IMG/VR virus record: IMGVR_UViG_3300021399_000099
Location: 128,001-192,000 of that record
Reading direction: 5' to 3' (one strand)
Source: a virus
Lineage: Duplodnaviria > Caudoviricetes
DNA: 64,000 nt
In this document: piece after piece, positions 895 to 11,008 of the stretch
Layout of the letters: every line of letters starts with the position of its first letter
Numbering within the stretch: the first letter of the stretch is position 1
The notes under the pieces: generated by a model
What the model was told of the DNA's origin: nothing
What the model saw: the letters and a program-made list of their open reading frames with translations, nothing else
The model's database searches: none
Program-made: the position numbers and the translations under genes

Positions 895-1101
895 TTAGCG
901 GTAAAGCTCCCAGTCGTCCGCAGTTACGTCGTCCAGGGAGAAACACTTGTCGGTAAAGCAAAAAGACGCATACTTACCGGCAATATCTGTCATTCCCCAG
1001 ACCTTATCACCGTTTGACATAATATATACGCCATCATTCCAAGACGTACGCCTGACCTTCTTCCCGTAAATCAGTGGCTGAATAATCTCTTCAAAAGTCA
1101 T
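895..1101 (-). CDS. DUF2829 / Tad2-like anti-defence sponge protein
   Basis: MTFEE..L..GKKVRR.SW...DVTADDWE pattern typical of DUF2829. Confidence 0.65.
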   Translation of the reverse strand: MTFEEIIQPLIYGKKVRRTSWNDGVYIMSNGDKVWGMTDIAGKYASFCFTDKCFSLDDVTADDWELYR

Positions 1102-1802: not shown

Positions 1803-2561
1803 TTAAAGTGCTGAACAACCACCCTTTGGAACAAACATCTGGCCGAGCCCCATCTTGAATTTCGTTTTCTGGTGCATAGATTCGATTGCTTCATCAACCT
1901 TCTTATCGCCACTTGTTCCTTTTACAAGATAAGTGTCAATGGCAGCGTAACTGAAACCCCACTTGGCGAATTTCTCATCATCAGGTGCGGAATTTGGAAG
2001 CCCGTCATCTGGAATCTTATCAACCCATTCAGCAGGAAGACCAAGAGCATAACCAACTCCCTTAACCTGGCGGACCGTAAGATTACCAATGGGTTCTACG
2101 TCGCTGGCTCCATCACCATAACGAGTGAAATACCCTACATAGTTCTCGCTGGCATTGCATGTACCAATCACACGACCGTTATTGGACTGGGAAATAGCAT
2201 AGAGGACGGTCATTCTAAGCCTCGGGGGAATATTCTGCTCGGTCTGTTTGCTCATATGTCCCGGAAAAACCGTCTTAATCTCATCAGTAAGACTCCCGAT
2301 AGGGAACTCAAGAAACTTGATACCAAGATATTCAGCAATCTTGTCAGCATCGTTAAGTCCTTGCCCAGTGTCCGGAATACCAACGCCAATAACCCTATCT
2401 TTACCAAGGGCTTCCACACAAAGAGCTGCCACGATGGTGCTATCCTTACCGCCAGAAAGTCCGATTACGGCATTGCAATCTGGACCGTTCTTTTCAAACC
2501 AGTCCTTAATCCACTGAACCAGTTCGTTTTTCAAACCATTAAATCTTTCCGTCATAACCAT
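1803..2561 (-). CDS. nadE: NH3-dependent NAD+ synthetase
   Basis: GLSGGKDS PP-loop, RLRM, GTCNASE..VGYFTRYGDG. Confidence 0.93.
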   Translation of the reverse strand: MVMTERFNGLKNELVQWIKDWFEKNGPDCNAVIGLSGGKDSTIVAALCVEALGKDRVIGVGIPDTGQGLNDADKIAEYLGIKFLEFPIGSLTDEIKTVFPGHMSKQTEQNIPPRLRMTVLYAISQSNNGRVIGTCNASENYVGYFTRYGDGASDVEPIGNLTVRQVKGVGYALGLPAEWVDKIPDDGLPNSAPDDEKFAKWGFSYAAIDTYLVKGTSGDKKVDEAIESMHQKTKFKMGLGQMFVPKGGCSAL

Positions 2562-2838
2562 AACGATTTTTAGTGATATAATCCTTCATAATAACGGCAT
2601 GAACCGTCAATGACAGTTTAAATAAACTCCCAATGCACTCTTCTGGCAACTTATACCCTTCCTTTAAATAAACAACGTTATCTATTAAGACTGAATCATA
2701 TAAGTCCAAAAAGTCTTCCTTTTGACAAATATCGGGGAATCCTACGCATTTCTGGTATAAAGCCTCCCGGTATTTTTCCGGGAGGTCTGTCATTGGCTTC
2801 TGTTCCATATGCTCTTAATCTGCATTTCTATTTGTTTG

Positions 2839-3747
2839 TTATAAACTTTTTACTTTGTTCCACTTTCTTTCTAAAAAATCGACATCATCACAAAAAGTTG
2901 CAATTTTCTTAATGTCATCTCTATTACCGATGACTAAAGCGGCCGTTCCTTTTTTTGTTATTTTTGTTGTTACTGAGGATACGCCATAGTCTCTTTTTAA
3001 AATTTCGGCAAAAAAATCAAGGTTTCCTTTCCACGAACTATGAAGTTCAATTTTAAGTTGTGGATAACCTTTTGATAACCATATGCAACCGTCTCCATCT
3101 ACAAATCCTATGAAAAAATAAACAAAATCATTTTGAAAAATCTCTAACTTTGGAGGGAAGTAGGTTTTTGCGGTTTCTTCCATACAAAGAGTTTCCCTCC
3201 AAGATTCAATCCTTGGTTTGTCATTCCCTTGTATCTTTACAAAGCCTTTATTATCTTCCTTTACTGTGACTGATAATCGTTTTGCTATTTTTTCAAGGTG
3301 TGCTCTATCAACATTTTTCAATGATATTATCAGCGTATTAGTTTTTGAAAGGTGCCCATCGGCCATAATAAATCCCCACCAATATAGACTTTCTTTTGTT
3401 AGTGCATTCAAATCTAAAAAAGACAAATCACATTTCCTACTTCGGTCTATTTTTGCCCGATATCCAAGCCAATGCGCGTGTAGTTCTATTTTTTGGTAAG
3501 TTCTCCCAGGAAACGCTTTCAGTAAGTCTTCCATGGAGTATGTTTCCCAGGCTTCTTTCAACTTTGCATTTTCTTCGGCGGTCCAACGGTCATAGTGATT
3601 TGACTTTATATGGAGAGCATCTATTTTAGCCTTTATCTGTTTTCTTGTTTTTCCCGGAAGGAGTTCAATACATTTGTAAATCCCTCCTTCCGGAAAATTT
3701 TCATAAAGAATCTGTTTTTCTTCGTCTGTCCAAGTTCTTTTACCCAT
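2839..3747 (-). CDS. free-standing LAGLIDADG homing endonuclease with N-terminal Myb-like repeats
   Basis: YWWGFIMADGH and FFIGFVDGDG motifs; WT.EE repeats. Confidence 0.8.
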   Translation of the reverse strand: MGKRTWTDEEKQILYENFPEGGIYKCIELLPGKTRKQIKAKIDALHIKSNHYDRWTAEENAKLKEAWETYSMEDLLKAFPGRTYQKIELHAHWLGYRAKIDRSRKCDLSFLDLNALTKESLYWWGFIMADGHLSKTNTLIISLKNVDRAHLEKIAKRLSVTVKEDNKGFVKIQGNDKPRIESWRETLCMEETAKTYFPPKLEIFQNDFVYFFIGFVDGDGCIWLSKGYPQLKIELHSSWKGNLDFFAEILKRDYGVSSVTTKITKKGTAALVIGNRDDIKKIATFCDDVDFLERKWNKVKSL

Positions 3748-3802
3748 GTTATATAGTGCTTTAATATAAATATATAACATTTAGTAAAAAAATCAAGGCA
3801 TA

Positions 3803-5353
3803 TTAAAACTTTCCGTCATTAAGGCGATTTCTAATATCGGCAAGACTCTCTTCTTTTATCATTTTACCGTCTTTGAAAACTGTTTCCATAAGGGTGTTCT
3901 GCATTGATTCTTCCCAAGTTAAACCGTCCTTATAGGTGATTTTCTTGTTCCACTTATCTCTCCAAAACACGGCACAGCATCCCTTCTGGGACTTTTTGAA
4001 ATTACCGCCTCCGGCTTCCCTATCAGTTTTAGGGTCCTTATAGATTGGAATCTTCGTAACAACGCCATTCTTGTCTGTGAATTCAGCGTAAATCGGCTTA
4101 ATGGCCATCGAAAAAGTGTCCCTCGTGAAAGGTTTGAGCATTCCATCTTCCTCAATACAATGCATGGAGAAGGAGCCCACACCCAGAGAAACATTGTTTG
4201 CGGCGAAACCGTTTTCCTCAAGAATTCGGTAAATCTCCTCGGCTCTCTGCACTGTAATAGAATCGCCATAAAGGGCCTTTACGTGCGGATTAAGGACCTT
4301 GTAACCCTTGGAGTTAGTTGTACCTCCAAAAATCTTCCAGAGTTCAAATACGGTCTCCGTAACCACCTTTACACAGTCGCCAGAGTCACCACGGACAAGC
4401 AGGCATCCGTTATGGGCAAGGATTTCGTCTTTAAGCGTAGGAAGAATGTTCTTTACCACATTCCAGTAATCATACGAATCGGAGACGCAGCTGAACGAAG
4501 TGTTGGGGTAAAGTTCGGTAAGGGCACGCTTGATAAAGATACGCTCGCGGTGAGGGTCAATGTCGGCGTACTCGTAATCCGGGTTATCGACCGTATCCTT
4601 TGCAGAATTGGAGCACATAACGAAATGCTCGGTGGAGACGGCGCCAAAGGCAACCTCTTCCTTTTCACAGTCGCAGTTGTAATAGTGCTCGAGATAGGGT
4701 ACGACGGGAACAGTGGCGCTATTCACGAAGGACAGACACCATGCTGAACCGGCCTTAAGTGCCGCGTCAAGGCCCTGGTCGCCACGGAAATCAAAGTTAC
4801 CGAGGGCGCGACGGCGAGGTACATTATCATCGCATGTCTTGTCATACCAATAATTTACAATCTCACGGTAAGTATGACCTACGGTAGCACAGACCATAGG
4901 ATACCACATCTCAGCGGAAATCAACGACTCCAGTGCCTGACCGAGCCAAGCGAAATCCGGATGGGTGTTGGTGATACCGAAAATGGGGCAATGAATTGGA
5001 ACGATGGTACCTTCCGGCAGGGAAACTACCTCAATGGGGAGATAGCCGAGACGATGAAGGTTTCTAATCTTTCCATAGTCACAAAGGTCTTTTCCAAGGG
5101 TATTATCCATAACCCTGGCATATTCGGCGACCACTTCTTCCTCAGTCTTTTTGAAGAAGTTCTCGTTGAAGTAGTCGATGAGCCAGGTCTTGCAGAATGC
5201 CTGGAGACCAAAATTAACCACTCCGTCCCAGCGATTAACGCGGGAACTTCTGGGGGTGAAATACGATACGCTCTTCGTCATACCCGGGTCAAGCATTTCG
5301 CTATGAACTGCCTTGTAGAAATCTTTGAGTAGTAATGCGTTACAATTAAACAT
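3803..5353 (-). CDS. NAMPT-family (nicotinamide/nicotinate) phosphoribosyltransferase, Namat/PncB-like
   Basis: DFYK, FDFRG, STEH, SCVSDSYD, VRGDSGD, YGDSIT, GVGSF, KDPKTD, KKSQKG motifs. Confidence 0.9.
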   Translation of the reverse strand: MFNCNALLLKDFYKAVHSEMLDPGMTKSVSYFTPRSSRVNRWDGVVNFGLQAFCKTWLIDYFNENFFKKTEEEVVAEYARVMDNTLGKDLCDYGKIRNLHRLGYLPIEVVSLPEGTIVPIHCPIFGITNTHPDFAWLGQALESLISAEMWYPMVCATVGHTYREIVNYWYDKTCDDNVPRRRALGNFDFRGDQGLDAALKAGSAWCLSFVNSATVPVVPYLEHYYNCDCEKEEVAFGAVSTEHFVMCSNSAKDTVDNPDYEYADIDPHRERIFIKRALTELYPNTSFSCVSDSYDYWNVVKNILPTLKDEILAHNGCLLVRGDSGDCVKVVTETVFELWKIFGGTTNSKGYKVLNPHVKALYGDSITVQRAEEIYRILEENGFAANNVSLGVGSFSMHCIEEDGMLKPFTRDTFSMAIKPIYAEFTDKNGVVTKIPIYKDPKTDREAGGGNFKKSQKGCCAVFWRDKWNKKITYKDGLTWEESMQNTLMETVFKDGKMIKEESLADIRNRLNDGKF

Positions 5354-5405
5354 ATATCTTTCTTTTAAGTTTTATTGCATATTATCTTGCAAATACCGTA
5401 CCAAA

Positions 5406-5657
5406 CTAGAGCTCCTCGGTCTCAACATAGGTCGTTTTTACAATCTTTTCGATTTTAACGACGTTGGACTTGGCCCAGTAACCGGGTGACGGATGTCTTT
5501 CCTTGATATCTTGGAAACTTGGCATGTACCATTTGAAGTAGCCATTTTTCTTAATGGTATTCAGTTTCCGTTTTTCATTTGCACCAAGCTGAAGGGTGTG
5601 GAAGTCGTCGCCGGTAATCAGGTAGTACTCCTGAGTTTCTTTCGTAATATTTGCCAT
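5406..5657 (-). CDS. hypothetical protein
   Basis: 83 aa ORF with its own sigma54-type motif at about 5689-5706. Confidence 0.6.
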   Translation of the reverse strand: MANITKETQEYYLITGDDFHTLQLGANEKRKLNTIKKNGYFKWYMPSFQDIKERHPSPGYWAKSNVVKIEKIVKTTYVETEEL

Positions 5658-5706
5658 AATTAAATCTTTATTGTTACAGCATTAACTGTACAAATATCGT
5701 GCCAAA

Positions 5707-6549
5707 CTATGCATTCAGCACGATAACTTTTTCATTATACCCGGTATAGAGGCTGTCCGTGGTATAAATGTAATCCACAGTACCGTTCTCGAGGCGTTTA
5801 AGCAGGGTTCCCTTCTCCGGGTCAAGCACACTGTTCTCCGTGTGGGTAGCATAAGCGTAGATATGTTCAAAGCCAAACTCCTTAAGCTTATCGGCGCTGT
5901 ATGCCAGGGTTCCACCGTAGGAAATAATGTCGTCAATCATAATGACGCTGCGACCAGAGCACTGGGAAGCATCAGGTTCATATCCTTCCGGTGTAGTTAT
6001 TCGGAGGCCTTTGATTTTCCCGGTCTCCCAATCACGAACCTTATGACCGATTAAGACATTTTTCTTGTTCGGGAAAAGGTCGCCGTAACGCTTGTAGGCA
6101 CCCTCGTCCGGGAAATAGAGATAATCATCGTTACCAAGGCCAATCCGTCTCACTGTATCGAGAATGAAATCCATAGGGCTCATAACCCATACGTTCTTGA
6201 TGAGTGCCGGGGTAACATTGGAGTGCGGGTCAAGTACATACACCCGATAAAACTCGAGGCTGTTGATTATGTCACAGAAGTATTTAAGTGTGAATACCTC
6301 GCTACTGTCCTTAATTCTGTCCATTCTGGCGTTGGGGACATAAAAGAGGTTAAGTACGAACAGCATATCCGGGTGAAGGCCCTTTAGATGCTTGGTAATA
6401 TAAATAAGGGTCAAAAGTTCCCCATCGTTCTCATAACGCCAAGTGATATGGTTGGCAGATGCAACGTTGAGGTAAAAATCTTGTTTCAGCAGCTGTGTTC
6501 CGTCCGGAAAGTGCTGAACTTCAACTTTTTGATTATTTACTAGAATCAT
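5707..6549 (-). CDS. prs: ribose-phosphate pyrophosphokinase-like protein (Prs / Adps-like)
   Basis: HFPDG, YVPNARMDR, LDPHS, PDEGAYKRY, IDDIISYGGT. Confidence 0.88.
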   Translation of the reverse strand: MILVNNQKVEVQHFPDGTQLLKQDFYLNVASANHITWRYENDGELLTLIYITKHLKGLHPDMLFVLNLFYVPNARMDRIKDSSEVFTLKYFCDIINSLEFYRVYVLDPHSNVTPALIKNVWVMSPMDFILDTVRRIGLGNDDYLYFPDEGAYKRYGDLFPNKKNVLIGHKVRDWETGKIKGLRITTPEGYEPDASQCSGRSVIMIDDIISYGGTLAYSADKLKEFGFEHIYAYATHTENSVLDPEKGTLLKRLENGTVDYIYTTDSLYTGYNEKVIVLNA

Positions 6550-6752
6550 ATCTTAATGTTTTTTTAAAAACCCATTCCTTCCCAAGGTTCGTCAAGGAGG
6601 CTTTCAACGGAACAATTATTCAGTGATGCTATTTCCTCGAGTTCCTTAATCCGCTCACTGGCCTTCTCTGCATCGACATAGGCCCATTCGCCGCCACCGT
6701 TAATGGCATCATAATAATCTTTATAAGGGTTATTGCTCATAATCTTGTCTTT

Positions 6753-7304
6753 TTAGATAACGTCAATCTGGCACATCTGCATGGTCTTGCAGGCAGCGAA
6801 ATGGGTCTCAGGGGTTACACCGGCGCAGCAGTCCTCAACGACCTTGACAGTGGCCTTGTCATAGAACGCAGCCTTAACCATCAGAGCATTGGAAACCACA
6901 CAGATATCGGTACAGAAACCGACAAACTCAATGTCAAGGTTGGCCCAAAGAGAAACACGCTTGATTTCGTCAATGAGGTCAAAGGAGCCAAAGGTAGGTT
7001 TCTCTACACGAACAACATTGATATTACGAATCTTTGCGTCATCAAGGGCTGCCTGGACGTTGGCTTCAATGTTCCAACCGTCAGTACCCTTTACGCAATG
7101 CACAACGGGAAGCTTCTGCCCCTCGTTAGTCTGGAGATAATCTTCTTCGTGGGTGTCCATGGTGTAAAAGATTGCATCACCGTTGAACTCACGAATCTTT
7201 TTGACAATGTTTGGAACGTTCTTGATAGCCTTTTCGTTCCTGAGGGCGCCAGTAATAAAATCGTTCTGGCAGTCGATAACGACCAAAATTTTTCTTGTTT
7301 CCAT
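6753..7304 (-). CDS. pncA: nicotinamidase (isochorismatase family)
   Basis: VIDCQNDF, DTH, HCVKGTDGW, KPTFGS, GFCTDICV. Confidence 0.88.
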   Translation of the reverse strand: METRKILVVIDCQNDFITGALRNEKAIKNVPNIVKKIREFNGDAIFYTMDTHEEDYLQTNEGQKLPVVHCVKGTDGWNIEANVQAALDDAKIRNINVVRVEKPTFGSFDLIDEIKRVSLWANLDIEFVGFCTDICVVSNALMVKAAFYDKATVKVVEDCCAGVTPETHFAACKTMQMCQIDVI

Positions 7305-7924
7305 ATTTTTGAAATTGAATGTTGTATTTTTAATGATATATACAAATACCGTGCCAAACTTACTTCCTTATTTTAACGGGTCATCACATTTAACCCACTC
7401 CCTTCTTTCTTTTTCGTACATTTTCCACCCCTTCCCATCCTCATAGTAATAGGAAAGAACGTTCCAGTCGGTATTATCTGTACCTGGAATATACTCCTTA
7501 ATGTATGCACTGATTCTCCAGAGCTTGATGATTCCTTTATCGTACATATCCAGGAAAATCTTCTTGCACGTATCATCAGCGAAACTGGCGTGTAGCGTTC
7601 CCCAATCTCCATAACTTGATAGAGATAAGCCATCCAACCCCTTTGCATTATAGGAACAATCACTGGCCATTTCCGGTTTATATCCAAGTTTTTCAATGTA
7701 CCTATGGTCTTCACCGGAACATTTATAGTCTATTGAATGCCCCTTCTCAAACGCAACATTAAACGGGTAAGGTAAATTATTCTCCATTTTCATCCTCTTT
7801 ATTGTCCTCTTCTTTGTAATACCACTCCAGATAGACAGAGTAGTTCCAGTCAATTTTGTCATAGTTCTCCTCTATCCATTTCAGCAGAGCTTTCTTGGAT
7901 GCAAACTCCTGGCCATACAGTTGT

Positions 7925-8584: not shown

Positions 8585-8897
8585 GTTCTTTTAAAATCAT
8601 TTCTCGTAATGTTGGGGTGTCCCTTACGATGTAGCAACCGTGATAGTTCCCCAGGTGAAACTTTGCGTGGTGCTCCGTTTCCAGTCTTTTAGCCACCGTT
8701 TCTAATAGCATCCTGTCGGACTGGCGTGTTCCATAATGGTCATAGGCATATATCTTGGTGCCCATCGGCTGTGTAAAAAACTCTTGTATCGTCCTGTCAG
8801 CCAATCTTGTTGTTTCCCCGGTCGCCCTGCTCAATAATTCTTGCAACTCTTCGTCTGTTTTACTTTTTAAGAAGTTGTCATAATATTCGCTGTTCAT
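8559..8897 (-). CDS. hypothetical protein
   Basis: 112 aa, coupled to the thyX stop. Confidence 0.65.
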   Translation of the reverse strand: MNSEYYDNFLKSKTDEELQELLSRATGETTRLADRTIQEFFTQPMGTKIYAYDHYGTRQSDRMLLETVAKRLETEHHAKFHLGNYHGCYIVRDTPTLREMILKELENRKDDE

Positions 8898-10009
8898 TAT
8901 GTTGTAAGGTCTTTATCACTTATAGCCACATCAAACGGTGCAAACAAATCACGTTCCAAGTCTTCAGTGGTCAAGTATCCACGCTCGACAAATTCGTCAC
9001 GCAGGGGGTTTGCCAGCTGAATGGACATCGGGTGGGCCTTACCGGTGGCTGCTATATCGCTACGGAGGCGGAAAAAGTGTATCCACGCGTCCTTGAAACC
9101 GCAGAGAACCAGTTCAGTCTTTGTAGATAGCGGGAGAACGCCCCTTGCCTGGTCCGGTATCCACGGCTTCTTTTCCTCTTCGGCAATCCCCTCTATATGG
9201 CTCCAATCGTTTGTAAGCCCATTGTATGCGTTTTCGGCAGAATTAAGTGCAATGAGCCATTGGTCAATCCTGTCATTTTTAGGCCTACCGCCGTACTTTA
9301 CGATTCGCATAGGGACTCGAGTCGGGGGGTCATCTTCCGTTGCTTTTTCAAAAAGTTCATTTCCCCCAACATCAACCCAGTCTCCGTCCCACCATATGAC
9401 ATTTTCTCCCTCGGCAAGCTTATCTTTTCCAATCCACGGCGGTATAACGAAACAACACTGGTTGCCATATTTCTTTCTGTTGTAATTCACATACCTGGTG
9501 CTTTCCTGGACCATTGACATCACCCTATGACGCAGGAAGTCTCGTCCAAGTCCAATATCGGTAATGAACTTCACGGTATAACGCTTCTCGTGGTATTCAG
9601 TTGGCTCACAGAGATACTTCAGGTCGTCAAGGCGGTTGTTCTCCACAAGGACACGATAGTTGGTGGTGATGTACCATTTAGAATTATAAAGTGCTCCTAT
9701 CTTGCTGTATTTATTGTTGCTGTAAAATCGTACGATGCTTTGGGTGGCTCCCCAATCTTTAAGTCCTGTCGGGTGTCCATTCTCATCAACATCTACTGGC
9801 GGCTCTTCAATACACAAATACACCGTCCCGAACTCCAGCACCGCACCGTGCCCTTCCTTCACCCTATTTTCTACAAACTTTCTGGCGGTCTCTCCACCTT
9901 TCACTTCACTCTTATAGGAGGTCTTGCCACAGCGTTCTATAATGTCATAGATACCCTGTAGTCCCGGCCCCTGTTCAATAATTTCGTAACTTGGTCTAAC
10001 TAATTTCAT
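8897..10009 (-). CDS. thyX: FAD-dependent thymidylate synthase
   Basis: GHGAVLE, RHRVMSMVQESTRY, ARGVLP, FFRLR, AHP motifs. Confidence 0.92.
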   Translation of the reverse strand: MKLVRPSYEIIEQGPGLQGIYDIIERCGKTSYKSEVKGGETARKFVENRVKEGHGAVLEFGTVYLCIEEPPVDVDENGHPTGLKDWGATQSIVRFYSNNKYSKIGALYNSKWYITTNYRVLVENNRLDDLKYLCEPTEYHEKRYTVKFITDIGLGRDFLRHRVMSMVQESTRYVNYNRKKYGNQCCFVIPPWIGKDKLAEGENVIWWDGDWVDVGGNELFEKATEDDPPTRVPMRIVKYGGRPKNDRIDQWLIALNSAENAYNGLTNDWSHIEGIAEEEKKPWIPDQARGVLPLSTKTELVLCGFKDAWIHFFRLRSDIAATGKAHPMSIQLANPLRDEFVERGYLTTEDLERDLFAPFDVAISDKDLTT

Positions 10010-10078: not shown

Positions 10079-11008
10079 TTACTTAAGGTTGTCAATCCCG
10101 TTTTCGGCGTACCATTCGCGGAATTTCTTGTATTCCTCCTCGCCTACTTTGTTGATGGCCACCTGCAAGTCGTTGTAATCGCAGTGCTTAATCTTGACGA
10201 TAATCCGCTTGCCGCGAGGGTCCTTGATAGGAACGACCGGTCTGGCTACAATGCCTTCCTCAAGATAGTCGGGGTTTGAAACATCCGGCACGAGGGTCTT
10301 AAATCCCTTCTTAACCATCTCTTCTGCCTCCTCAATGGTCATCTGGCCAATGTAGGGTGCAACTGTGAGACCAAGTTTCTCGGCATAGTCGTTCAGCATA
10401 TCAATGGGAACCCACCAACCCTGCACACAGATGTCGAAGATGGAGAAACGGTTCTTATCCTTGTCATAGTTGCCGCCAGACTGAATCTTCTTACCGAAGA
10501 ACTCACCATAGATATAAACGGGAACCTCTTCTACGTGGATAACGCCATACTGTGGGTGTTCTCTGTATTCGTTGATGGTGATGGGGTTCGGGTCAGGGTC
10601 ACCAGCAGAAGAATCATACAAAAGAATCTGGTTCTTATCATTCATTACAGGAGCAAACTTAGCACTCTCAGGCGGGAACAGCTCAGCAAGAATGGGCTTA
10701 ATCCTTTCAATCTCAGCATCAAGGAATGCCTTCTGCCCGGTACCTACGATGTCAGCATTGTCAGTCTTGCCACCAGGGAAACATTCTCCAGTGGAAGGGA
10801 AATAAACAATCTTACTATTGGTACCGTCTATTTTACTAAAACAATCAAACTTCAAACCCTTGATGTATTCCATAAAATCGTCAGAGTATTCATCGACAAT
10901 GATTTTATTCATAAACACCTTCCAGTCCTTGTTAGGAAGAGTGACCTTTCCAAGATTTTGATATCTTTTATACAAAGTGTTGATTTTTGTGTAAGTTTGT
11001 GTCTTCAT
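10079..11008 (-). CDS. RNA ligase (Rnl2-like nucleotidyltransferase)
   Basis: KIDGTN (motif I), YGEFFG, FDI, EGIVARP, KIK. Confidence 0.8.
   Translation of the reverse strand: MKTQTYTKINTLYKRYQNLGKVTLPNKDWKVFMNKIIVDEYSDDFMEYIKGLKFDCFSKIDGTNSKIVYFPSTGECFPGGKTDNADIVGTGQKAFLDAEIERIKPILAELFPPESAKFAPVMNDKNQILLYDSSAGDPDPNPITINEYREHPQYGVIHVEEVPVYIYGEFFGKKIQSGGNYDKDKNRFSIFDICVQGWWVPIDMLNDYAEKLGLTVAPYIGQMTIEEAEEMVKKGFKTLVPDVSNPDYLEEGIVARPVVPIKDPRGKRIIVKIKHCDYNDLQVAINKVGEEEYKKFREWYAENGIDNLK

Follow-up and report, generated by a model that had tools for sequence, protein, structure and literature searches.

Could a phage restore NAD+ through nicotinate and deamidated intermediates, using a derivative of the counter-defence pathway NARP1? 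Canonical NARP1 consists of Adps and Namat and is known from phages SpbetaL1, Bas63, Fado and ICP1 and from Paenibacillus foliorum (bioRxiv 10.1101/2024.02.11.579819; PMC12774641; PMC13586617). The question arises from four genes on the minus strand of the window, by which we mean the whole 64,000-nucleotide stretch analyzed (positions 128,001 to 192,000 of IMG/VR record IMGVR_UViG_3300021399_000099). The phage of origin is large and comes from gut or rumen.

Gene content and layout of the locus

The features of the locus, in the order in which the minus strand is read, are as follows.

7341..7356, minus: sigma54-like promoter motif TGGCACG-N4-TTGTA, ~37 nt upstream of the nicotinamidase start
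6753..7304, minus: PncA-type nicotinamidase (isochorismatase fold), 183 aa; PF00857, E 3.7e-21
6564..6740, minus: 58-aa ORF, no family, unconserved in related loci
5707..6549, minus: Adps-family Prs-like enzyme, 280 aa (predicted ADP-ribose pyrophosphokinase); phrog_619, E 1e-61
5689..5704, minus: sigma54-like promoter motif, starting 1 base past the Adps-like TAG stop, upstream of the 83-aa ORF
5406..5657, minus: 83-aa ORF, no family, unconserved in related loci
5388..5403, minus: sigma54-like promoter motif TGGTACG-N4-TTGCA, ~35 nt upstream of the PRTase start
3803..5353, minus: Namat-clade PRTase variant, 516 aa (predicted nicotinate ADP-ribose transferase); phrog_448, E 2.9e-152
4715..4717, minus: PRTase Ala213 codon, aligned with Namat Asp215 and human NAMPT Asp219
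4634..4636, minus: PRTase Ser240 codon, aligned with the Namat Ala242 pocket residue
4118..4177, minus: PRTase selectivity-clamp helix region, residues 393-412; GSF and TRD kept, with a 9-residue insertion between them
2839..3780, minus: LAGLIDADG homing endonuclease, 313 aa; PF14528, E 4e-10; phrog_4645, E 7.8e-21
2539..2808, minus: 89-aa ORF, no family, unconserved; overlaps the NadE start by 23 nt
1803..2561, minus: single-domain NH3-dependent NAD synthetase NadE, 252 aa; PF02540, E 2.5e-49
895..1101, minus: Tad2-like small protein, 68 aa; PF11195, E 3.4e-8 (34.4 bits; cut-off 25)

The co-oriented cluster of pncA, Prs-like, PRTase and nadE genes described in a sequence-only reading is thus present, each gene at the position given there. 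Their clustering is not due to chance, since the same set was found again in 24/24 informative related loci, with nicotinamidase in all 24 and NadE as well in 23. The homing endonuclease between PRTase and NadE is a mobile insertion outside the pathway and is missing from the equivalent position in related loci. The 89-, 83- and 58-aa ORFs had no Pfam, NCBIfam or PHROG match and no counterpart in related loci (for the 58-aa ORF, by tblastn against 35 loci). The Tad2-like protein, encoded 700 bp downstream of the module, is a candidate Thoeris signal sponge and a neighbor rather than a part of the pathway. The sigma54-like pattern, which constitutes repeat family D1 in the window, has 11 matches there, every one of them on the minus strand; chance alone would give 0.02.

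At 20.8 bits, the nicotinamidase does not reach the 174-bit cut-off of the NCBIfam PncA equivalog model. Its PDB matches include the nicotinamidases 1ILW/1IM5, 3O90 and 3PL1, and alignment to P. horikoshii PncA showed an intact metal site (DxH...HC) and intact catalytic Asp, Lys and Cys residues, all of them also conserved in 19 homologues from related loci. NadE, with PDB matches 2E18, 3FIU and 1EE1, has no glutaminase domain, and its SGGKDS P-loop is conserved across 19 homologues. The Prs-like protein scored 232 bits on an HMM whose 14 training sequences were Adps from canonical NARP1 loci and fell under the cut-off of the Prs model TIGR01251 (64 versus 113 bits); it also keeps every mutationally validated residue of ICP1 Adps, namely F18, R87, H121, D161, K185, D212 and D213 (PMC13586617).

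On balance, and with some reserve, we favor the view that the module is a nicotinate-type derivative of NARP1. The nicotinamidase would convert nicotinamide freed by defence NADases to nicotinate and NH3, while the Adps-family enzyme would pyrophosphorylate ADP-ribose (ADPR), the other NADase product, to ADPR-PP. The transferase would then join nicotinate and ADPR-PP directly into NaAD (deamido-NAD), which NadE would amidate with NH3 to yield NAD+, a route that would require no phage adenylyltransferase. Such a module would act in counter-defence; the further suggestion that NaAD forms a pool shielded from defence NADases found no support.

The pyridine pocket and its clade

The solved structure that best matches the PRTase is SpbetaL1 Namat (9W5X/9W5W, E 1.4e-99), with human NAMPT reaching only ~1e-36. 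The equivalents of Namat D13, Y15, F189, R192, H245, R306 and D308, the catalytic core, are kept, and the gene adjoins an Adps-family gene, the arrangement by which Osterman et al. operationally define Namat (bioRxiv 10.1101/2024.02.11.579819). The nicotinamide amide is contacted by an Asp, residue 215 in Namat and 219 in human NAMPT. An alignment by eye had read NSAT in the place of the NAMPT motif GTDT, and a phmmer alignment to 9W5X gave the same pairing, with Asp215 replaced by Ala213. This change is accompanied by a co-varying one elsewhere in the pocket, where Namat Ala242 is replaced by Ser240. In Namat, D215A lowers NAD+ synthesis 8.1-fold (PMC12774641); for human NAMPT, loss of activity with D219A and a substrate switch with D219S are tabulated in PMC4919578 from Khan et al. 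2006. With an Ala-to-Ser change alongside, the pocket seems to have been remodelled, the amide-binding Asp having been lost and a Ser gained. We strongly infer, from these two residues and the gene context, that the PRTase uses nicotinate.

To place these substitutions, position counts and a tree were made from 166 PRTase relatives (67 variant-clade, 99 canonical), down to ~37% identity. At the Asp215 position the variant clade has Ala in 46, Ser in 20 and Val in 1 of 67 sequences, while outside it Asp occurs in 97 and Glu in 2 of 99; at the Ala242 position, Ser is found in 64/67 variant and Ala in 97/99 canonical sequences. All 67 non-Asp sequences form a single clade (support 0.999) and require one change on the tree. 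Gene content follows the same division. Among IMG/VR variant loci, NadE and/or nicotinamidase lies within 10 kb in 20/20 and both in 18/20, and deep-branching representatives have an isochorismatase, a Prs-like gene and NadE in 4/4 informative cases. Conversely, neither NadE nor nicotinamidase was found in any of the 26 informative canonical, Asp-type NARP1 loci (15 phage; 11 bacterial, from 12 examined), nor in 11 canonical viral records searched throughout, save for one marginal 22.6-bit PF02540 match. The canonical phage loci have an Adps-like match within 10 kb in 14/15, the remaining one (L033) beginning at the PRTase gene. One complete 355-kb genome carries the variant PRTase, Adps and nicotinamidase without NadE. 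Because NadE and nicotinamidase became associated with the variant PRTase in a single evolutionary event, the many variant loci are not independent observations.

Co-substrate, adenylyltransferase and rival routes

Whether the transferase takes ADPR-PP bears directly on the proposed route. By the selectivity-clamp motif defined in PMC12774641, the clamp residues are conserved equally in the variant clade and in canonical Namat, with the SCL Arg in 55/67 and the SCH position-3 aromatic in 65/67 variant sequences. The clamp helix carries an insertion in 56/67 and has canonical length in 11/67, and the earliest-branching variants retain the complete canonical motif. In the window PRTase, the 9-residue insertion falls in the adenine-clamp helix and the position-7 aromatic, which contacts adenine in SpbetaL1 Namat (PMC12774641), is lost. 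At three variant loci, the partner Adps comes from a lineage clustering with the canonical Adps. SpbetaL1 Adps converts ADPR to ADPR-PP and gave no product in a Prs-type control reaction (Osterman et al., bioRxiv 10.1101/2024.02.11.579819); the control substrate is PRPP in that paper's text and ribose-5-phosphate in its figure legend. Namat enzymes also accept PRPP in vitro (PMC12774641; Osterman et al., bioRxiv 10.1101/2024.02.11.579819). On this evidence, the PRTase is moderately likely to take ADPR-PP rather than PRPP.

The module holds no adenylyltransferase, NadR or PnuC gene, and there is no adenylyltransferase anywhere in the window, so the reported absence of NadD, NadR and NadM there was correct. 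A search of the rest of the genome, which that reading had called for, found PF01467 matched only once in the record of 216,910 bp (G000:C1:65771-66220), outside the window and 62 kb away, in a 415-aa protein with weak NMNAT-like motifs only. Eight variant-carrying viral genomes are at least 90% complete, and six of them lack a PF01467 gene, one has a CoaD and one a distant NMNAT. In the Asp-to-Ser sub-clade that lost the clamp Arg, a NadM-type NMNAT directly follows NadE in 4/5 loci, and in two other variant loci PnuC and NadR do so. The absence of an adenylyltransferase is therefore not a clade-wide rule, given this sub-clade and the weak NMNAT-like gene in the window's genome. Overall, the sequence-only reading finds partial support: the pocket change, nicotinamidase and NadE that are restricted to the clade, together with the Adps-family partner, favor its core idea of a deamidated, nicotinate-using NARP1 derivative.

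A less probable, though still serious, alternative is phage-boosted Preiss-Handler salvage, in which PncA would supply nicotinate, the PRTase would form NaMN with PRPP from the Prs-like enzyme or the host, host NadD or a phage NMNAT would make NaAD, and NadE would complete NAD+. The use of PRPP by Namat in vitro fits this route, as do the NMNAT beside NadE in the sub-clade without the clamp Arg, the NMNAT-like gene of the window's genome, the altered clamp helix and the gut jumbo phages catalogued with KEGG-annotated pncB, nadD and nadE and also pncA clusters (PMC11662467). However, the partner enzyme is by its scores an Adps rather than a Prs, SpbetaL1 Adps was inactive in the Prs-type control, and the clamp Arg and position-3 aromatic are conserved as in ADPR-PP-using Namat. 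Moreover, 6/8 complete genomes lack an adenylyltransferase-like gene yet nearly all have NadE, an asymmetry that an equal need for host NadD and NadE would leave unexplained. A direct NaAD route would account for the carriage of NadE but not NadD seen in complete genomes.

We consider it improbable that the module is an ordinary NARP1 using nicotinamide or both bases, with nicotinamidase and NadE as a side branch into host PncB/NadD and pocket changes that are neutral or serve another purpose. The gene association is one clade-level event and the base-specificity change is a prediction from sequence, which fits this reading, but a nicotinamidase in the module would compete with Namat for nicotinamide, Asp never occurs inside the clade and is nearly invariant outside it, the Asp-to-Ala mutation cripples Namat and inactivates NAMPT, and the accompanying Ala-to-Ser change is a sign of remodelling. 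More improbable again is a Francisella-type route, in which nicotinate and PRPP would give NaMN, the phage NadE would give NMN and an NMNAT would give NAD+. Francisella NadE (3FIU) is an NMN synthetase, and the short phage NadE matches it at 95 bits, about equally to other solved NadE, NaAD-specific enzymes included. Length is not diagnostic, however, because the short archaeal NadE of M. jannaschii is strictly NaAD-specific; the phage NadE clears the NAD synthase model TIGR00552 (166.5 bits versus a cut-off of 63.65), and most complete module-bearing genomes lack the adenylyltransferase acting on NMN that the route would require. NaAD, rather than NaMN, is the presumed NadE substrate.

Comparison with known NAD+ systems

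No paper describing the NaAD route was found, and it is apparently an undescribed variant of NARP1; if true, nicotinate-ADPR-PP transfer implies a new enzyme reaction. NARP2 (NAMPT and a bifunctional NMNAT, vibriophage KVP40) and NARP3 (PnuC and NadR, phage Bas30; PMC13464706) are also phage-encoded and restore NAD+ against NAD-depleting defence, and some relatives of the module have an NMNAT or PnuC and NadR after NadE. Unlike these systems, the module in the window lacks NMNAT, NadR and PnuC, and its transferase is paired with Adps, not an NMNAT. Human NAMPT D219S (Khan et al. 2006, as given in PMC4919578) changes the same position, where Ser occurs in 20/67 natural variants, but it is a single substitution engineered into an enzyme that uses PRPP, whereas the natural clade adds Ala-to-Ser and the window PRTase has Ala at the Asp site. 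The "NAD-jumbo phages" (Microbiome 2024, PMC11662467) are likewise large gut or rumen phages with pncA and nadE-type genes and a nicotinate/NaAD route; their clusters are KEGG-defined by pncB, nadD and nadE, while the module has a NAMPT/Namat-fold transferase and an Adps-family gene and no nadD. ADPR, NARP and a changed pocket go unmentioned in PMC11662467.

The closest system is NARP1 itself, which shares both enzyme families as neighboring genes. The PRTase is nearest to solved Namat and keeps its catalytic core, clamp Arg, GS-aromatic and TRD, the validated Adps residues are kept, and the module would likewise start from ADPR and nicotinamide. It differs in the Asp215-to-Ala and Ala242-to-Ser changes, the clamp-helix insertion and the added nicotinamidase and NadE, which occur in none of the canonical loci examined. 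The predicted transferase product is NaAD rather than NAD+, and the module would spend two ATP where NARP1 spends one.

Organization of the NAD+ module

The window covers bases 128001-192000 of a 216,910-bp IMG/VR virus record with an estimated completeness of 61%; TAA is the usual stop of its long genes, which lie on the minus strand. Family searches bore out the cluster of four enzymes that had been proposed from the sequence alone, i.e., a nicotinamidase, a Prs-like protein, a NAMPT-family PRTase and NadE, all of them real genes and co-oriented on the minus strand, but a homing endonuclease and small ORFs had been overlooked in that gene list.

Features in and around the module (window coordinates)
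895-1101, minus strand: Tad2-like protein (Thoeris anti-defense), 68 aa; PF11195, E 3.4e-8, above cut-off
1803-2561, minus strand: NadE, 252 aa, last gene of the module; PF02540, E 2.5e-49; TIGR00552 above cut-off
between NadE and the endonuclease, minus strand: 89-aa ORF
2839-3780, minus strand: LAGLIDADG homing endonuclease, 313 aa, free-standing, between PRTase and NadE
3803-5353, minus strand: NAMPT-family enzyme (PRTase), 516 aa; phrog_448, E 2.9e-152
5388-5403, minus strand: sigma54-like motif ahead of the PRTase
5689-5704, minus strand: sigma54-like motif, followed by an 83-aa ORF
5707-6549, minus strand: Prs-like (Adps-like) protein, 280 aa; phrog_619, E 1e-61; weak Pfam Prs matches
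between the Prs-like and isochorismatase-fold genes, minus strand: 58-aa ORF
6753-7304, minus strand: isochorismatase-fold protein (predicted nicotinamidase), 183 aa; PF00857, E 3.7e-21
7341-7356, minus strand: sigma54-like motif ahead of the isochorismatase-fold gene
8897-10009 and 10079-11008, minus strand: ThyX-type thymidylate synthase and RNA ligase, just upstream of the module
1492, 5388, 5689, 7341, 11433, 26280, 34090, 38833, 49920, 55035 and 55101, all minus strand: sigma54-like motif copies

The sigma54-like motif, TGG(C/T)ACG-N4-TTG(C/T)A, occurs 11 times in the window, where chance would give 0.02 copies, and every copy is on the coding strand. Three copies lie ~35 nt upstream of NAD+-module genes, which suggests that the module forms three transcription units under an unusual promoter class. 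At two of these three, the TAG stop of the preceding gene ends one base ahead of the motif; amber (TAG) readthrough as a change to the gene models was rejected, since it adds just 10 residues to the Adps-like gene and 7 to the 83-aa ORF. The endonuclease and small ORFs do not recur in related loci, and the 89-, 83-, 58- and 164-aa ORFs were dropped as pathway parts, having neither a family match nor conservation among those loci.

About 700 bp downstream of NadE, the Tad2-like gene is a candidate signal sponge beside the NAD+ module. One distantly related cluster has an RNA ligase of the T4 Rnl2 type (L045:7494-8435) inside it, with the nicotinamidase on one side and the PRTase on the other. 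Many relatives of the PRTase have a length of 800-1100 aa and interrupted matches (probable inteins), and the N terminus of one carries an HNH-AP2 endonuclease region; sites of selfish elements are window 2839-3780 (minus strand) and the PRTase representatives P0127, P0138, P0189 and P0162 (L047:10001-10960). The PRTase gene is a frequent target of selfish elements.

The transferase pocket and a proposed deamidated route

The nearest solved structure to the PRTase is SpbetaL1 Namat (9W5X/9W5W, E 1.4e-99, vs. ~1e-36 for human NAMPT), and this places the enzyme in the NAMPT family's Namat branch; the PncB model TIGR01513 scored 18.8 bits, below its cut-off of 297, the fold being that of NAMPT/Namat. 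With residues numbered as in the published Namat structure (PMC12774641), the catalytic core (D13, Y15, F189, R192, the catalytic His, R306 and D308) is kept in full and is invariant or nearly so among relatives of the same variant type (65 to 67 of 67 sequences). The pocket differs. Namat Asp215 (NAMPT Asp219), which hydrogen-bonds nicotinamide, is Ala213 here, as the by-eye alignment of GTDT to NSAT in the sequence-only reading had it, and none of the 67 variant-clade sequences has Asp at this position; Namat Ala242 is Ser240. Namat D215A lowers NAD+ synthesis 8.1-fold (PMC12774641), while the table in PMC4919578, drawing on Khan et al. 2006, lists human NAMPT D219A as inactive and D219S as a substrate-preference switch.

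The isochorismatase-fold protein aligns to the solved nicotinamidases 1ILW/1IM5, 3O90 and 3PL1. Compared with P. horikoshii PncA 1ILW, it retains Asp, Lys and Cys of the catalytic site along with the metal site Asp-x-His...His-Cys; we take these residues to have the roles known for PncA, and nearly all of 19 homologues share them. It belongs to a divergent phage family (phrog_19305), with 20.8 bits against the curated PncA model NF008623, under the cut-off of 174. NadE scored 166.5 bits with TIGR00552 (cut-off 63.65), has the PP-loop SGGKDS and matches PF02540 only, with no glutaminase; by sequence it is a single-domain, NH3-type NAD synthetase. Its PDB matches are about equal and do not discriminate between NaAD and NaMN (P. 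horikoshii 2E18, 102 bits; Francisella 3FIU, 95; B. subtilis 1EE1, 84). Francisella NadE is an NMN synthetase and the short archaeal NadE is strictly NaAD-specific (PMC3376133); no residue-level rule for this choice was found in the literature searched.

We then compared loci. A scan of IMG/VR gave 35 with PRTase relatives at 35-77% identity. All 20 Asp-less loci (pocket motif N-S/T-A-T or K-T-S-T, always with Ser at the Ala242 position) have NadE and/or an isochorismatase within 10 kb, and 18 have both; for the 15 canonical loci with GTDT and Ala, the counts are 0/15 for NadE and 0/15 for isochorismatase. Whole-record searches of 11 canonical viral records returned isochorismatase in 0/11 and a credible NadE in 0/11 (a single marginal match, 22.6 bits). 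A genome-contig scan with the variant representative P0146 yielded bacterial NARP1 of the canonical Asp type alone (Curtobacterium, Putridiphycobacter and others), and neither gene was present at 11 informative bacterial canonical loci (Curtobacterium, others). Isochorismatase, Prs-like gene and NadE are all present in 4/4 deep-branching variants with usable contigs (P0146, P0153, P0162 and P0237; 37-47% identity to the window PRTase).

An exhaustive search found, among 50%-identity representatives, 88 with the pocket pair (Asp, Ala), 34 with (Ala, Ser), 17 with (Ser, Ser) and a few others, the two positions thus changing in concert. The 67 variants group in a single clade (support 0.999) of the 166-sequence tree, with one change on it, so the association of variant PRTase, NadE and nicotinamidase is one ancient event rather than many independent ones; it has been retained through deep divergence and on many different genome backbones. 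The clade makes up at least 57 of the nearest 150 50%-identity cluster representatives, and large uncultured phages of the gut and rumen are the source of its members. A megablast search of GenBank phages with the region gave no match, and at the protein level the sole GenBank phage record in the variant range was MT835544.1 (human fecal, 58% identity); all cultured phages were at or below 41%, and we therefore found no cultured representative.

The complete 354,809-bp genome of G001 (the record of locus L002), with terminal repeats, encodes the variant PRTase, Adps and nicotinamidase, and a whole-genome search found no NadE and no cytidylyltransferase-like gene; this 355-kb relative presumably relies on host NadE, which is consistent with a deamidated product. 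At L044:128-4614, a compact five-gene module consists of an NrtR-like regulator (winged-helix domain above cut-off), an Adps-like gene, an isochorismatase, a variant PRTase with a canonical clamp, and NadE; its context appears to be bacterial chromosomal, because a 900-aa chemoreceptor gene adjoins. Taken as a whole, we consider it very probable that the module works via nicotinate.

ADPR-PP or PRPP as the second substrate

That the transferase joins nicotinate to ADPR-PP and so yields NaAD directly is the best single explanation, and one that we favor by a modest degree; its weakest link is the use of ADPR-PP rather than PRPP. Pointing to ADPR-PP are the Adps-family partner with its residues and lineage, the SpbetaL1 Adps control, the conservation of the clamp and the scarcity of adenylyltransferases. 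Upstream of the PRTase start (5353), and separated from it by 354 bp and the one 83-aa ORF, is the Adps-like gene (5707-6549). This pairing holds in 24/24 variant loci that extend upstream of the PRTase (20 from IMG/VR plus P0146, P0153, P0162 and P0237) and, within 10 kb, in 14/15 canonical loci; L033, which begins at the PRTase gene, and the P0188 contig L042, with just 318 bp upstream, are uninformative. The protein scored 232 bits against an HMM of the 14 canonical-locus Adps and 64 bits against TIGR01251 (Prs), below the cut-off of 113, and these scores, with the phrog_619 match, place it in the Adps sub-family, not Prs; a PDB search with it matched Prs enzymes only. The ICP1 Adps residues backed by mutagenesis or structure (F18, R87, H121, D161, K185, D212 and D213; PMC13586617), located with the sequence from the ICP1 genome record, are kept in the window protein and in 24/24 variant-locus homologues (F18 as F or Y), while ICP1 F92 is conserved in neither the variant nor the canonical group. 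These seven positions are shared with Prs and are therefore, on their own, no proof of ADPR use. At three variant loci the Adps lineage groups with canonical Adps, and SpbetaL1 Adps gave no product in a Prs-type control, for which the text names PRPP and the figure legend ribose-5-phosphate (bioRxiv 10.1101/2024.02.11.579819).

The published clamp-loop rule places a stacking Arg, Lys or Tyr at the third position (PMC12774641). Arg38 of the window PRTase aligns with Namat Arg40, and conservation of this Arg (55/67 variants) and of the clamp-helix position-3 aromatic (65/67) is as in canonical Namat. Within the helix motif (GS-X-phi-X-phi-X-phi-TRD, aromatics at positions 3 and 7), the window enzyme keeps GSF and TRD, has Cys at position 7 and carries a 9-residue insertion ahead of the conserved Phe-TRD; 11/67 variants have no insertion and keep the canonical spacing, and the early-branching variants inspected among them, e.g., P0146, retain the complete canonical motif.

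The absence of an adenylyltransferase from the window, claimed in the sequence-only reading, held up in a PF01467 search (0 genes), which likewise revealed no NARP2-type link of the transferase with an NMN adenylyltransferase there. For nadD, nadR or nadM in the rest of the genome record the answer was less clean, with one PF01467 match, a weak NMNAT-like protein 62 kb off.

G000:C1:65159-66406 (L001:889-2136, plus strand in L001): 415-aa protein with a C-terminal nucleotidyltransferase domain; weak family scores

It carries the motifs GRFQPFHLGH and ISGTAIR, typical of NadM-type NMNAT, and its N-terminal 200 residues have no assignment; we do not call it an NMNAT, as an Atlas search gave only viral cytidylyltransferase-like families without known function. 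Eight variant-carrying genomes have a completeness of 90% or more: six of them lack any cytidylyltransferase-superfamily gene, CoaD is present in one and a distant NMNAT in another. In 4/5 loci of the Asp-to-Ser sub-clade, a NadM/archaeal-type NMNAT (~190 aa) directly follows NadE.

NMNAT genes after NadE
L016:16083-16667
L017:14559-15146
L019:15547-16089
L020:8631-9044

In this sub-clade the clamp Arg is lost and GAF replaces GSF; its route may run through NaMN. An NMNAT where the clamp has decayed fits clamp-intact enzymes, the window's included, not needing one, as seen in a single lineage. At two further variant loci (L012:11832-13576 and L013:14194-15938), PnuC and a NadR-like NMNAT/kinase, the NARP3 pair, directly follow NadE, so that a single cluster combines two routes of NAD+ restoration.

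The main rival holds that the window enzyme makes NaMN and that host NadD completes the route. It has a published precedent (PMC11662467), Namat accepts PRPP in vitro (PMC12774641; bioRxiv 10.1101/2024.02.11.579819), and the altered clamp helix also speaks against ADPR-PP, as do the NMNAT genes of the Asp-to-Ser sub-clade, the two PnuC-NadR pairs and the weak NMNAT-like protein of the window's genome; we regard this rival as rather unlikely. If it were true, the finding would be that a NAMPT-fold enzyme has taken on the role of a nicotinate phosphoribosyltransferase, which is a lesser result, though likewise undescribed.

Relation to known NAD+ pathways

NAD+ depletion is among the commonest bacterial anti-phage strategies, and we know of no experimental system that has examined NAD+ counter-defense in large uncultured gut and rumen phages. 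A counter-defense role of the module is suggested by its homology to NARP1, by NADase products as substrates and by the Tad2-like neighbor. The contrast of Asp + Ala with Ala/Ser + Ser would also provide a base-specificity rule for the NAMPT/Namat fold that is readable from sequence; it would help to annotate many virome "NAMPT" genes and could be of use for making NaAD or NAD+ enzymatically.

Gut jumbo phages have been reported to carry genes of salvage and of the Preiss-Handler route by KEGG annotation (pncB, nadD, nadE and pncA), in a study that did not consider ADPR, Adps or a changed pocket (PMC11662467; Microbiome 2024). Three phage NAD+-rebuilding pathways have been described so far, NARP1 (Adps + Namat), NARP2 (NAMPT + NMNAT) and NARP3 (PnuC + NadR), and the papers on them that we consulted name no NadE, PncA or nicotinate as a phage-pathway part; in the literature searched we found no further NARP names, no nicotinate ADP-ribose transferase and no NaAD or NadE variant of NARP1. 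Beside these three, it is about as likely as not that the Namat-clade variant is a new nicotinate ADP-ribose transferase (ADPR-PP to NaAD) that, with nicotinamidase, Adps and NadE, forms a fourth pathway, widespread in gut phages and also present in what appears to be a bacterial operon that includes an NrtR-like regulator; if so, it would add both a fourth route and a reaction absent from that literature, nicotinate + ADPR-PP to NaAD, and would bypass NaMN and every adenylyltransferase.
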